Origin: Halodesulfurarchaeum sp.
GTDB lineage: Archaea; Halobacteriota; Halobacteria; Halobacteriales; Halobacteriaceae
Length of the DNA stretch: 22,939 bases
NCBI GenBank assembly: GCA_042216015.1
Contig: JBDGUI010000025.1
Coordinates: 1 to 22,939 of the forward strand
Reading direction: 5' to 3'
This document shows, piece by piece, positions 15,357 to 20,001 of the stretch. The notes under the pieces were generated by a model that did no database searches, was not told where the DNA came from, and was given only the letters and a program-made list of their open reading frames with translations. Each line of letters starts with the position of its first letter. Position 1 is the stretch's first letter. The position numbers were made by a program, and so were the translations under genes.

Positions 15357-17981
15357 TCAGGGAACGACGACGATCGTTCCGAAGGAGGCCTCGAGCACGG
15401 CGACCTCCTCGCCGGCCTCGGTCCGGTACTCGGTGTTCACCGAGACCATCTCCGGGTCGACCGTCACCGTCGAGCCATCGATGGACACCTCGACGGGCCC
15501 GCCGGAATCCAGCTGGGCCTTGATCGTGTCCGGATCGCTTCCCTCGAGGGCGGCCATGACCCTTCCGGCCTCGTCCCGGAAGGTCGGCCCGATCTGGGCC
15601 TCGTCCGGGTCGACGTCCGTGGCGACCTCCTCGAGGTCGGGCCGTCCGATCGACGTGCGGATCGGGGCTCCAACGGTCTCGCTCAGGTCGTAGGTGTCGA
15701 CGCCGTGCTGTGGTTCCTCCTCGAAGTACAGTTCGACGCGTTCGAGTTCGGCGTTCAGCGCGATCCCCTGCTCGGACTTCCAGGCCCGGACCGTCCGGGC
15801 GGCCTCGGCGATGTCCTCGCCGACGGTCGTGTCACCGTCGGGTGTCTCGGTTCCGGGCCAGTCGGCCCGGTGGACACTCCCCTCGGTCCCCGGCAGGTGG
15901 TGCCAGATCTCCTCCGCGAGGAAGGGGCTGAAGGGCGCGAGCAATCGGACGACTGCCGAGAGCGTTTCGTAGAGCGCTGCCCGGGCGGCGTCACGCTCGC
16001 CCGGCCGGCCGTTGTAGAGTCGGCCCTTTACCAGTTCGAGGTAGTCGTCGGCGAGGTCCTCCCAGACGAACTCCCGGAGGGTCCTGACGGCGATGTCGAA
16101 CCGATTATCGTCCATCGCGTCGGTCATCTCCCCGGTGACGGTCGCGAGGCGGTCGAGAATCCAGCGGTCGGTGTCTCGGTAGGCCGGCGCGGTGATCTCG
16201 GGTGTATCCGCATCGAGGTGGCCGCTGGCAAAGCGGAAGACGTTCCAGAGCTTCGTCAGGAACCGCGAGGCCGCGGTGACCTCTTTCCACTGGAACTGGA
16301 CGTCGGCCCCCGGTTGTCCGCCGACGGCCATCGCCTGCCGGAAGGCGTCGGCGCTCTCCTCCTCGAGCACCTCGTCGGGCGAGACGACGTTCCCCCGGGA
16401 TTTGGACATCTTGTTTCCGTCGGGGCCGAAGACCATGCCGTTGATCAGCGCGGTGTCCCACGGTTTCTCCTCCTCGAGTGCCGCGGTCCGGAGGATGGTG
16501 TAGAACGCCCAGGTGCGGATGATGTCGTGGCCCTGCTCGCGGAGCGCCACGGGCTCGAAGGGCTCCTCCGGCCAGCCGGCGACGTGCATCGCCGAGATGG
16601 AGGAGTCCATCCAGGTGTCCATCACGTCGGTCTCGCCGGACCACTCACCCGCCCCGCACTCGGGGCACGTCTCGATTGCCGGTTCGTGTTCGGTCGGCTC
16701 GACCGGCAGCTCCTCGACGTCGGCGATCTCCCAGTGGCCACAGTCTTCACACTGCCAGGCCGGGATCGGCGTCGCGAAGACGCGCTGACGGGAGATGACC
16801 CAGTCCCAGCTCATCCCCTCGGTCCACTCCTCGAGGCGGGCGTACATGTGCTCGGGAATCCACTCGACCTCCTGGGCCTTCTCGAGGATCTCGTCCTGGC
16901 GGACCTCGACGAACCACTGATCCTTCGAGAGGATCTCGATCGGGGTGTCACACCGCCAGCAGACCCCGACGGACTGCTCGACCGGCTCGCTGTCCACGAG
17001 CAGCCCCTCCTCCTCGAGGTCGGCGGGGATCTCCTCCGTTGCCTCCTCGATCGAGAGGCCCTCGTACTCCCCGGCGAGGTCGTTGAGGTGGCCGTCCTCG
17101 GTGAGCACCGCCCGGAGGTCGAGGTCGTACTCGGCCCACCAGTCCACGTCCTGTTTGTCCCCGAAGGTCGAGATCATCACCGCGCCGGTTCCGAACTCGG
17201 GGTCGACCGCATCGTCGGCGAGGAGTTCGACCTCCTGGCCGATCGGGGGGACCTCGAAGGTGTCACCGACTCGCCCTGCGTAGCGGTCGTCCTCGGGATG
17301 GACCGCCACTGCGCCGGTCGCGGCGAGGAGTTCCGGACGGGTCGTTGCAATTTCGACGTCGTCGTTGTCGATTCCGGGAAATCTGATGGTGTAGAGGGTG
17401 CCCTCCCGGTCCTCGGTTTCGACCTCGGCGTCCGCGATCGCGGTCTGGCAGCGGGGACACCAGTTGACGGGGTGCTCGTCCCGGTAGACGTAGTCCTTCT
17501 CGGCCATCTCGACGAAGGAACGCTGGGTCTTCCCCCAGTAGCTCGGGTCCATCGTGCGGAACTCCTGGTCCCAGTCCTGGGAGAACCCCAGTCGACGCAT
17601 CTGGGTGCGCATTGCGTCGATCTGGTCCTCCGTGTGATTCACGCACATCTGGCGGAACTCCTCCCGAGGGACGTCGGTCCGGTGGATCCCCTGATTCTCC
17701 TCGACTTTCACCTCCGTCGGGAGGCCGTGGCAGTCCCATCCCTGCGGGAACAGCACGTCCTCGCCCTGCATCCGGCGATACCTGGCGAGGAAATCCATGT
17801 AGCACCAGCCCAGTGCGTTGCCGATGTGGAGATTGCCGGTCGGGTACGGGGGCGGCGTGTCGATCACGTAGTCGGTGGCGCCGGTGTCCTCGTAGGCGTA
17901 CACCGACTCCTCGAGCCAGTAGTTCTCCCACTCGGATTCGATCCGCTCGGGCTCGTAGTTCTCGGGGATGTCCTGTGTCAT
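15357..17981 (-). CDS. valS: Valine--tRNA ligase
   Basis: [16 protein letters not shown] (HIGH motif), [34 protein letters not shown] editing domain, [18 protein letters not shown] and KMSKS. Confidence 0.97.
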
Positions 17982-18080
17982 GGGTGGTCATGGAGTCGCC
18001 GCTTCTCGACGGAAACCACACGAGAAACGCGTGTAGTCCTGCCCGCGAGTCTACTCACGTACTACCGCGACGACGCACAT
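17982..18080 (-). promoter_or_regulatory. Structured valS 5' leader with alternative helices (candidate attenuator)
   Basis: Complementary segments (+ coordinates): 18067-18074 with 17995-18002; hairpin 18044-18059; 18030-18038 with 18014-18022; 18021-18029 with 18000-18008. Confidence 0.6.
18051..18080 (-). CDS. Putative valine-rich leader peptide (uORF) of valS, MCVVAVVRE
   Basis: The minus strand reads ATG TGC GTC GTC GCG GTA GTA CGT GAG TAG. Four of the 8 non-initiator codons are Val. The ATG is about 27 nt downstream of a TTTAAAA box. Confidence 0.7.
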   Translation of the reverse strand: MCVVAVVRE

Positions 18081-18103
18081 ACTCGATTCACACGCGCCGT
18101 CGG

Positions 18104-18110
18104 TTTTAAA
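18104..18110 (-). promoter_or_regulatory. TATA box of the leader-valS transcript
   Basis: TTTAAAA on the minus strand in a very GC-rich context. No comparable box sits at the right distance from the valS ATG itself. Confidence 0.7.
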
Positions 18111-18196
18111 GATTGCCGTTGAATCGCCAGTCCCGTTCTGGCGTTTCTCGTGACGGGTCCGGGAGCTTAAGCACCGGGTCGCCCATCATCCCATGT

Positions 18197-19054
18197 ATGG
18201 CCGGTCGAATCCTCGTCACCGGGGCCACCGGGACCGTCGGATCGGCACTGGTGTCATCTCTCCCCGACGAACGGGACCGCCCCCGCGTCGCGTCCCGGAA
18301 TCCGGACCAGGCCGCAGCGTCATTCGAGTGCCCCGTGGAGGCCGTCGAGTTCTCCCTCGAGCGACCGGAGACGTGGGGAGCGACACTCGAGGGGGTCGAT
18401 AGCCTGTTTCTGCTCTGGCCACCCGGCACGCGCGTGGGGTCGGTTACCGAGTTCATCGCTGCAGCGGGGAGAACCGGAGTCGACCACGTCGTCTTCCTGT
18501 CGGTCCTCGGCGCCGAGAAGCTCCCGGTTCTTCCCCACCACCGCATCGAGCGGTCTCTCGGTTCCGCCGACCTGACGGACACTGTCCTCCGAGCGGCATA
18601 TTTCGCCCAGAACCTGACCGGCGTGCATCGCCCAGAGATCGTGGACCGGGATGAGATTTTCATCCCGGCCGGCTCGGGCCGGCTGGGAATCGTCGACGCG
18701 CGGGACGTCGGTGAAGTCGCCGCACGCATCCTTAAGGAGGGGTCCAATCGGAATCGAGCACACACCCTCACGGGACCTGTGGCCATCGATTTCTCTCGTG
18801 TCGCCCGGATCGCAAGTGACGTGCTCGACCGGGAGATTCGATATCCCGACCCCTCCATTCCCAGATTTGCCGCTCGCATGGTGAAACGGGACGTGGCGCC
18901 CGGACTTATCGCGTTCATGATCGGGGAATATACAGTCGCCCGGCTGGGGTTTGCCTCACGAACGACGGACGACGTCGAAGAAATCCTCGGGCGCAAACCC
19001 CGGTCAGTCCGGACCTTCTTCGCCGATCACCGCTCCCGATTCGAGTCGGGGTAA
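18197..19054 (+). CDS. NmrA-like atypical SDR / NAD(P)H-binding protein
   Basis: From ATG 18197: ILVTGATGTVGS, VFLSVLGAEK, HHRIE, LRAAYFAQNL, VDARDVGEVAA, HTLTGP. CTTAAG box at about 18166-18171. Confidence 0.85.
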   Translation: MAGRILVTGATGTVGSALVSSLPDERDRPRVASRNPDQAAASFECPVEAVEFSLERPETWGATLEGVDSLFLLWPPGTRVGSVTEFIAAAGRTGVDHVVFLSVLGAEKLPVLPHHRIERSLGSADLTDTVLRAAYFAQNLTGVHRPEIVDRDEIFIPAGSGRLGIVDARDVGEVAARILKEGSNRNRAHTLTGPVAIDFSRVARIASDVLDREIRYPDPSIPRFAARMVKRDVAPGLIAFMIGEYTVARLGFASRTTDDVEEILGRKPRSVRTFFADHRSRFESG

Positions 19055-19107: not shown

Positions 19108-20001
19108 ATGCAACTGGGGGTCATCGGACTCGGACGCATGGGACAGATCGTCGTCGACCGGGTCCTCGAGGCCGGACACGAGGTCGTGGCCTTCGATATC
19201 GACCAGGGGGCAAGAGCCGACGCGGCGAGCGCCGGCGCGGAGGTCGTCGAATCGATCCAGGGGATCCCGAAGGTGCTCGATCCGCCCCGTCACATCTGGC
19301 TGATGGTCCCGGCGGGCGACCCGGTCGACGCCGCACTCGCCGAGCTCGATCCACTCCTCTCGGCCGAGGACGTCGTCGTGGACGGTGGGAATTCACACTT
19401 CGAGGATTCGGTCGAGCGGGCCGAGCGGATCGAGGCCCGGTACCTCGACTGTGGCACGAGCGGCGGACCGGCGGGGGCCGAGGTCGGTTTCTCGCTCATG
19501 GTCGGTGGCCCCGAGGAGGCCTACACCGAACTCGAACCGGTCTTCGACGCGGTCGCGACCGGACCCGAGGGCCACGAACTGATGGGCCCCGCCGGGGCCG
19601 GCCACTACGTCAAGATGGTCCACAACGGCATCGAGTACGCGCTCATGCAGGCCTACGGCGAGGGCTTCGAACTGCTCGCCGAGGGTCGCTACGACCTCGA
19701 TCTGGAGGCCATCGCCCGGACCTGGACCAACGGCGCGGTCGTCCGTTCGTGGCTCCTGGAACTCGCCGAGGAGTCCTTCCGGGAGGAGGGCTCTGATCTC
19801 GGGAACGTGGCCGATCACGTCGCCGGCGGCTCGACGGGCACCTGGACGGTCCAGGAGTCCCTCGAACAGGAGGTTCCACTCCCCCTCATCTACCAGGCGC
19901 TCGCCGAGCGGTTTTCCTCTCGTGCGGGGCCGCGGCTCTCCCGGCGGCTGGCCAACCGCCTCCGGTATGGCTTCGGCCGTCACGAGGTCAAACGGCAGTA
20001 G
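19108..20001 (+). CDS. gnd: 6-phosphogluconate dehydrogenase, short NAD+-dependent decarboxylating type
   Basis: GVIGLGRMG, WLMVPAG, VDGGNS, DCGTSGG, AGHYVKMVHNGIEY, RSWLLEL and LRYGFGRH. Confidence 0.93.
   Translation: MQLGVIGLGRMGQIVVDRVLEAGHEVVAFDIDQGARADAASAGAEVVESIQGIPKVLDPPRHIWLMVPAGDPVDAALAELDPLLSAEDVVVDGGNSHFEDSVERAERIEARYLDCGTSGGPAGAEVGFSLMVGGPEEAYTELEPVFDAVATGPEGHELMGPAGAGHYVKMVHNGIEYALMQAYGEGFELLAEGRYDLDLEAIARTWTNGAVVRSWLLELAEESFREEGSDLGNVADHVAGGSTGTWTVQESLEQEVPLPLIYQALAERFSSRAGPRLSRRLANRLRYGFGRHEVKRQ

Follow-up and report, generated by a model that had tools for sequence, protein, structure and literature searches.

How archaea match the levels of their aminoacyl-tRNA synthetases to tRNA charging without T-boxes is, to our knowledge, an open question, ribosome-mediated attenuation being a textbook bacterial mechanism. 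The question is raised by the valS locus of a Halodesulfurarchaeum sp. contig (JBDGUI010000025.1; the window, i.e., the whole stretch analyzed here, comprises 22,939 nucleotides). An initial annotation of this DNA, made from the letters alone, had proposed that a short valine-rich open reading frame (uORF) at the start of the valS transcript is translated leaderlessly and senses the charging of Val-tRNA. Does this leader, then, carry a ribosome-read valine sensor, and on which step of valS expression would such a sensor act?

Sequence features of the valS leader

The product of 15357–17981 (minus strand, 874 aa) was identified as valine–tRNA ligase by the NCBIfam models PRK13208 (1013 bits, cut-off 738) and TIGR00422 (857 bits, cut-off 612). 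The tree described below placed it in a group referred to here as clade A or type A, which is our own label for the ValRS group of the source locus. Reading toward the valS ATG (17981) on the same strand, a TATA-like box of sequence TTTAAAA is found at 18104–18110, and a uORF at 18080–18051 with the codons ATG TGC GTC GTC GCG GTA GTA CGT GAG TAG (MCVVAVVRE). Its ATG lies 30 nt from the first T of the box and 23 nt from the box end, and, judged by sequence and conservation, is the predicted 5′ transcript end. The uORF was present as initially described, and it recurs in relatives (see below). Its stop codon is separated from the valS ATG by 69 nt, and four of its eight non-initiator codons specify Val. 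A further, out-of-frame ATG at 17991 was not conserved, being seen in 3 of 19 aligned leaders.

TATA-spaced intergenic uORFs are rare in the source genome: a scan of 1,394 putative genes, whose coding mask missed the valS uORF itself, gave 13. The claim that GTA is an uncommon codon held for the genome as a whole, where it makes up 3.5% of the Val codons in 622 long acidic ORFs; in the same ORFs, GTAGTA accounts for 11 of 2,027 Val-Val dicodons. The genome has one tRNA-Val each with the GAC, CAC, and TAC anticodons, Val-tRNA(UAC) being the only one whose anticodon matches GUA. The nearest named relatives of the source are Halodesulfurarchaeum MAGs, at 83–92% identity.

Conservation of the uORF in clade A

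A ValRS search of 151 Halobacteria genomes returned a close group (32 genomes, 61–100% identity) and a distant group, and a tree of 54 ValRS proteins consisted of two deeply separated clades, A and B. Clade A was sampled at 110 loci, namely the best 30 from the 151-genome search and, out of 598 candidates, the 80 best. An AUG uORF at TATA spacing and with a Val motif was found at 81 of the 110, and at 81 of the 84 readable core-haloarchaeal loci. These 81 include the source locus and reduce to 79 distinct leaders. The 29 loci without a uORF call comprised 19 from non-Halobacteria (four Marine Group IV-like, two of them assigned from the tree and the other two from similarity, and 15 from other taxa), six of a basal Halorutilales-like branch in which no leader was seen, one masked locus, and three core loci. 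The latter, which lack an intact leader among the 84 readable ones, are L148, L197, and L153, in the last of which a degenerate frame starts with GTG and contains one GTA. The valS uORF is real and conserved. GC-rich DNA often contains short ORFs, and the fold of the source leader is not unusually stable, as would suit a chance ORF in intergenic DNA, but such an origin is refuted by this conservation, besides a dRNA-seq 5′ end at the AUG (see below), and may safely be set aside.

What is conserved, however, is narrower than the Val-enriched uORF that had been expected across Halobacteriales: the uORF and its GTA pair were borne out, overall Val richness was not. The clade A uORFs are 7–14 codons long, and the tandem GTA GTA occurs in 77 of the 79 distinct leaders. 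Its last GTA is codon 8 in 63 leaders and codon 7 in 13, and the codon after the pair is CGN in 75 (CGT 61, CGC 5, CGA 5, CGG 4). The codons before the pair vary freely, for instance MGLMSSVVR, MSAIRSVVRGP, and MRVELAVVRV. Of the two Val pairs pointed out initially at the source locus, GTC GTC is lineage-specific and lies in an RNA helix; hence, the conserved signal is the GTA pair, at 18060–18065 (minus strand; here codons 6–7, followed by CGT, and unpaired in the predicted fold). The signal of the valS leader is, in other words, a fixed pair of GTA codons together with a putative RNA switch, and not overall Val richness.

The rule by which leaders were picked needed a V-V, V-R, V-I, or V-G dipeptide, and no GTA codon. 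When a check was seeded by GTAGTA[CT] alone, the farthest ATG within 30 nt was in frame at 67 of 75 sites, and a stop codon followed 3–7 codons after the first GTA at 71 of 75. The uORF frame was also kept across 3-nt indels. A TT(T/A)(T/A)-type box starts 29–33 nt before the uORF AUG in all 79 leaders (at −30 in 57), a spacing that is partly due to construction, as the leaders were chosen by such a box. The leaders span 75–240 nt. A genome-wide search of 56 family genomes with the pattern ATG-N(9-24)-GTAGTACG did not discriminate, as its reversed control gave matches at a similar rate.

Both Val codons are near invariant at their third position (GTA, not GTN), and GUAC contains the UAC anticodon triplet. 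Both facts would agree with GUAGUACG being an RNA-level site, recognized either by uncharged tRNA-Val in a T-box-like manner or by ValRS through tRNA mimicry, with the frame incidental. Such mimicry by an mRNA site for a synthetase operates in E. coli thrS. For valS, we consider this improbable. An incidental frame would not call for an AUG at the transcription start site (TSS), for a frame preserved through indels or for a stop close by, and in the codon that follows the pair the third base is variable. Moreover, an Rfam scan of 17800–18300 (E up to 5) returned only a chance snoRNA match, and no T-box or known leader. Sister uORFs, as the Ribo-seq list for H. volcanii discussed below has it, are translated.

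Start of the valS transcript

In the supplement of PMC6161675, valS of H. salinarum NRC-1 is placed at 1908841–1911486 (minus strand). The unfiltered dRNA-seq TSS list given there has a signal of 10,120 at 1911586 and of 57 at 1911487, with 7–28 at three sites between them, so that the dominant valS 5′ end in this list is 100 nt upstream of valS. In the matching genome of our set (G023, locus L028), the divergent gene is likewise 284 nt away, and the ValRS stretch differs from the published one at one residue (compared by eye). The uORF AUG of this locus is located at exactly −100. Since both the NRC-1 5′ end and this AUG are at −100, the main valS transcript starts on the uORF AUG, where the initial annotation had expected it. 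At the source locus, transcription presumably starts at the uORF AUG as well.

The same list gives signals of 8,296 for metS (leaderless), 533 for alaS, and 24 for aspS. A high valS signal was considered as a sign of premature termination and was rejected, as metS reaches 8,296; the size of a TSS signal does not itself show attenuation. No transcript ends can be read from the Logan contigs X1, X16, and X22, and a text-term look-up in the Gelsinger 2020 supplement gave no hit.

Folding of the leader and the predicted helix P1

In the minimum free energy (MFE) fold of the source leader, GUCGUCGC (18067–18074, minus strand, within uORF codons 3–5) pairs with GCGGCGAC (17995–18002, −21 to −14 before the valS AUG). 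These are the putative 5′ and 3′ strands of a helix that we refer to as P1, both resting on this fold and on the duplex tests with cognate and swapped partners given below. GUAGUA is left unpaired, and UUUCU falls in a hairpin loop. Two further hairpins are predicted by the fold on the same strand: a lineage-variable one over the Arg-Glu-stop codons (18044–18059, CGUGAG / CUCGCG), and a short one at 18017–18033, whose loop presents the U-rich tract UUUCU(C) (18027–18022). The stability of the fold as a whole equaled that of shuffled sequences (z −0.01).

Across the relatives, uORF codons 2–8 are predicted to pair with the region from about −31 to −10 relative to the valS AUG; the two strands vary in concert. 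The mean duplex energy for the 79 leaders was −19.4 for cognate, −16.1 for non-cognate, and −14.2 for shuffled partners; in 57 leaders of the 79 the cognate pairing surpassed the non-cognate mean, and in only 25 was it within the best 5%. When one leader was taken per peptide class (45 classes), the cognate mean was −17.7 against −14.2 ± 0.43 kcal/mol for permuted partners and was reached by 0 of 10,000 permutations, a significance that is overstated because kin are not independent. A control pairing against the valS coding sequence gave no cognate advantage. For the source leader itself, the cognate partner was not better than the non-cognate ones (−15.5 vs −16.1). RNAalifold, run on a MAFFT alignment of 19 Halobacteriaceae-like leaders, gave five conserved pairs with no compensatory change; as the pairs were few and lacked covariation, pairing was tested per sequence instead, as above. 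Comparative pairing supports the predicted helix P1.

The best P1 partner ended at −14 to −9 in 38 of the 79 leaders, and at −25 to −1 in 62. According to the accessible part of PMC7261190, the footprint of the haloarchaeal ribosome extends 12 nt upstream of the P site; the −14 to −9 position of these 38 partner ends matches the 5′ edge (−12) of an initiating ribosome so defined. A Shine-Dalgarno (SD)-like word precedes valS in one of the 79 leaders.

When a ribosome was masked at the Val codons, the predicted unpairing of −30 to −11 rose from 0.32 to 0.49 (78 leaders), with a gain above 0.15 in 43 of the 78. A ribosome masked at the stop codon gave 0.47, nearly equal to the stalled state. The unpairing of −10 to +3 was unchanged by masking (0.62 in all states, 78 leaders), and so P1 abuts the valS start and does not bury it. 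Since the stop-codon ribosome opens P1 almost equally, the dwell time on the uORF, and not the exact position of the ribosome, would set the output.

That any uORF ribosome opens P1 about equally would also be expected of a translated uORF that serves as a constitutive device for ribosome delivery or damping, by termination and reinitiation onto valS, with no valine sensing; with SD-like words so scarce, valS may need some such other route of ribosome recruitment. This explanation accounts neither for the use of cognate codons by each synthetase concerned (Val, Phe, Trp, Thr, Ile; see below) nor for the fixing of the rare GTA in two distant ValRS clades, and we hold it to be quite unlikely.

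The U-rich tract and RNA reads

A TT[TC][TC] tract occurs within 40 nt of the uORF stop in 74 of the 79 leaders. Among 78 local folds, 61 placed it in the loop of a hairpin, a count made without a shuffle control. In the accessible part of PMC7237163, the intergenic termination motif of H. volcanii is a T stretch plus TC, which the post-stop U-rich tract of valS resembles. The same valine sensor could, then, have the fate of the transcript as its main output: the tract would be used for termination or for cleavage by aCPSF1/FttA once the ribosome leaves, and a stalled ribosome would shield the tract or refold the RNA, giving read-through into valS. aCPSF1 acts with U-tracts, as far as the sources accessible to us describe it.

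Reads of the RNA run X21, one short-insert library of unknown preparation with 84 reads, bear on this point. Upstream of the AUG the depth was ∼1, across the first 40 nt it was ∼40, in the remainder of the leader 15–21, and in valS 0–7; 27 reads ended at L028:1860, in a UUU tract 8 nt past the uORF stop. Such ends fit termination or cleavage at a T stretch plus TC, and the 41-nt pieces could equally be nuclease-trimmed RNA or mark a ribosome sitting on the stop codon; neither a start nor an end site was formally called there. Transcript fate as the main output is further weakened by the finding that the tract begins under the Val-stalled ribosome in only 0–8 of 78 leaders, and by the TSS signal of valS, which is unexceptional beside that of metS. 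For the pheS leader of H. volcanii, a text-term look-up in the Berkemer supplement gave no internal 3′ end, and the fixed position of P1 beside the valS AUG would be left without explanation. We regard transcript fate as a possible main output, and a tentative one.

valS leaders in clade B

Clade B was sampled at 60 of about 105 genomes with a valS of this type. A GTA-bearing uORF leader was found at 37 of the 60 loci (12/12 in family f4, 21/24 in f5, 3/3 in f7, and 1/21 in f2); the other 20 f2 loci had no valS leader and look leaderless. The clade B design consists of a GTA-codon uORF of 16–33 codons, followed directly by a G-rich hairpin and a C/U-rich tract. As these leaders are longer and built differently from those of clade A, a separate origin is suggested. 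The 5′ UTR of H. volcanii valS is 6 nt long in the supplement of PMC4983044 and holds no such leader, which explains why the model species hid the valS leader.

The clade B leaders (L034–L049, L214–L249) read V-F-V(GTA)-G or GTA GTA GGG, with a GGGGC/GCCCC hairpin over the stop codon. In f5, a conserved TTTCGACGGATGTATTGT block comes after the hairpin and the C/U tract, and valS has an SD-like GGCGGTGA.

Cognate-codon uORFs before other synthetase genes

If the uORF of valS gauges its cognate amino acid, similar uORFs might be sought before other synthetase genes, as the initial annotation had suggested. Five genomes were searched per family (for ileS, 10 loci), and cognate uORFs were indeed found for several. 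An FGFF-type uORF precedes pheS in five of five genomes (four read off, and G072 by eye). In the source genome it is MLAESASGMHGVGETPRSQGFGFFFGA (G000:C4, plus strand), located 118 nt before pheS (L099) and ahead of pheST. A WRW uORF precedes the short type of trpS in three of three genomes and the long type in G068 only (1/5), an ACA-bearing uORF precedes thrS in two of five, and an ATT ATT uORF precedes ileS at 1 of 10 loci. In up to five genomes each, no cognate uORF was seen before leuS, metS, alaS, aspS, cysS, hisS, serS, proS, or tyrS.

Two of these uORFs have counterparts that are already catalogued in H. volcanii. The supplement of PMC4983044 puts the 5′ end of pheS at the AUG of its uORF, and the Ribo-seq list in the supplement of PMC10117724 (Hadjeras 2023) includes the uORFs of both pheS and trpS, which the accessible main text of that paper does not name. 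HVO_2948A (before pheS) and HVO_A0126A (before trpS) appear in Table 2 of PMC4983044 (Babski 2016) with no interpretation as sensors. They, too, are short uORFs that carry cognate codons (GFGVFF and WRW, respectively) in the leader of a synthetase gene, the pheS one being leaderless. In the accessible parts of PMC4983044 and PMC10117724, they are catalogued as small proteins and not read as amino-acid sensors. If the valS reading is true, it would provide a function for such small ORFs.

Several smaller features of these genes may be noted. The trpS WRW uORFs (L086, L088, L090, L092) share a conserved ADS/VDS tail. The thrS uORFs of L065 (G072) and L067 (G062) are the TATA-spaced MVGVRFTGAFARF and MAGVYFTGRAFARF, each having just one ACA codon for Thr; in the three remaining genomes of the five, thrS is leaderless. 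The ileS uORF of G047 (L051) has 30 codons, ends in SSIIAGQ, and is followed by a hairpin and a C/U tract, like clade B valS. In the same genome, argS (L123) is preceded by a TATA-spaced 21-codon uORF, MRFVSERACSGAFGKAFSRLP, that has two Arg codons and ends 10 nt before argS; it was not seen in the four other genomes. ProRS-like proteins were of two types (L075, L076 vs L077–L080), the source genome (G000) having only an MRRS-type match and G062 both.

Proposed mechanism

We consider it very probable that the valS leader is a valine sensor, with either translation or transcript fate as its output. In support of this, a rare GTA pair is held at a near-fixed place, the frame and a close stop are kept, and a GTA leader is also present in clade B. 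The sensor interpretation of the initial annotation was likewise supported, as the conservation of the uORF and its GTA pair, the H. salinarum TSS, and the cognate uORFs at other synthetases all agreed with it. Translation as the first output takes the larger share of this reading: that the leader is a leaderless, ribosome-read valine gauge acting mainly on the translation of valS seems to us about as probable as its opposite. Against it stand the unremarkable P1 and fold of the source leader, the lack of compensatory pairs, the unaffected −10 to +3 region, and the absence of the leader in H. volcanii.

A gauge of this kind would work as follows. Transcription starts at the uORF AUG, as seen for H. 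salinarum and presumed at the source locus, and a ribosome would load at the transcript's 5′ end, as was observed for the H. volcanii Phe and Trp uORFs. With ample Val-tRNA(UAC), the ribosome would pass GUA GUA, reach the stop codon, and leave. Codons 2–8 could now base-pair with the sequence immediately ahead of the valS AUG to form P1, which would end at the 5′ edge of the initiating-ribosome footprint, and initiation on valS would be damped. The untranslated RNA may subsequently undergo cleavage or termination at the U-rich loop thus exposed, as a secondary site of control. When charged Val-tRNA is scarce, the ribosome would dwell at codons 7–8 and probably cover the whole 5′ strand of P1; the valS start would stay open, and more ValRS would be made.

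We lean slightly toward a broader statement, according to which haloarchaea have a set of leaderless, ribosome-read gauges (Val, Phe, Trp, and some Thr and Ile). The Val gauge would have arisen twice, in the two ValRS clades, each time on the rare GTA and with a different RNA architecture, and a start lacking an SD would be controlled by a long-range helix, with cleavage or termination in a U-rich loop coupled to it. If true, the gauge set would be a form of archaeal attenuation without the bacterial terminator.

Comparison with known systems

The pheM-pheST, trpL, ilvL, and hisL leaders of E. coli are leader-peptide transcription attenuators, in which cognate codons read tRNA charging as the signal. 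What the valS leader has in common with them is a leader peptide of cognate codons that precedes a biosynthetic or synthetase gene. Unlike them, the valS uORF is not led by an SD, and neither a stem plus U run nor an alternative antiterminator was found: there is no terminator-like site on the minus strand in 17900–18250, and the U-rich tract of valS is short and mostly in a loop. An archaeal output through the U-tract and aCPSF1 is possible. In Gram-positive bacteria, valS is controlled by the T-box riboswitch; the target gene, and presumably the signal, are the same, but the haloarchaeal leader is ∼100 nt long and opens with a conserved reading frame. The trp leader of Methanothermobacter is said to have a two-codon minigene, a possible precedent.

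The best reading of the locus is that of a putative valine-sensing attenuator resembling the leaderless polycysteine sORFs of mycobacteria (Ms5788A, the ‘Cys ribulon’; Canestrari et al., 10.1101/834739). As these are described in the accessible part of that report, both have a leaderless short ORF at the head of the transcript, a pair of adjacent cognate codons can be enough, a duplex beside the downstream start is blocked by the stalled ribosome (predicted for valS), and several loci follow one logic. A duplex test of the mycobacterial type gave both the pairing of the uORF with the start region and its opening on masking, weakly in the source sequence. Sequestration of an SD by the duplex was not found in the 79 leaders, SD-like words and the accessibility of −10 to +3 being as given above. 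The valS leader differs from the accessible description of the mycobacterial systems in being archaeal, in targeting an aminoacyl-tRNA synthetase, and in having no SD to hide; in addition, its predicted duplex stops 9–14 nt short of the AUG, its uORF has settled on one rare codon (GTA), and there is an extra U-rich loop.

A search of mostly open full texts, with bioRxiv supplements outside its scope, found no description of a valS leader or of amino-acid-sensing leader peptides in archaea. In the accessible parts of PMC7261190, PMC11456600, PMC7531240, PMC8116511, PMC13675443, and PMC12186497, archaeal uORFs are generic or absent. The valS leader is probably a new archaeal variant of leader-peptide attenuation, its regulation being predicted from sequence comparison. 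It makes archaeal attenuation, the structural control of leadered initiation without an SD, and the gating of aCPSF1-type termination by a stalled ribosome testable in a tractable setting, namely a leader of ∼100 nt with two sensor codons, a start mapped in the genetically tractable H. salinarum, and a predicted helix that covaries naturally.

Sequence around the valS locus

Just upstream of the valS TATA box and on the opposite strand, a terminator-like hairpin with a T-rich tail is located at 18125–18143 (plus strand), at the start of the region of the NAD(P)-binding gene on the convergent side. A gnd gene lies near valS at the source locus (19108–20001). Marine Group IV-type ValRS (L169, L173) falls inside the leader-bearing haloarchaeal clade A, yet is leaderless, and its valS adjoins gnd-like sequence.
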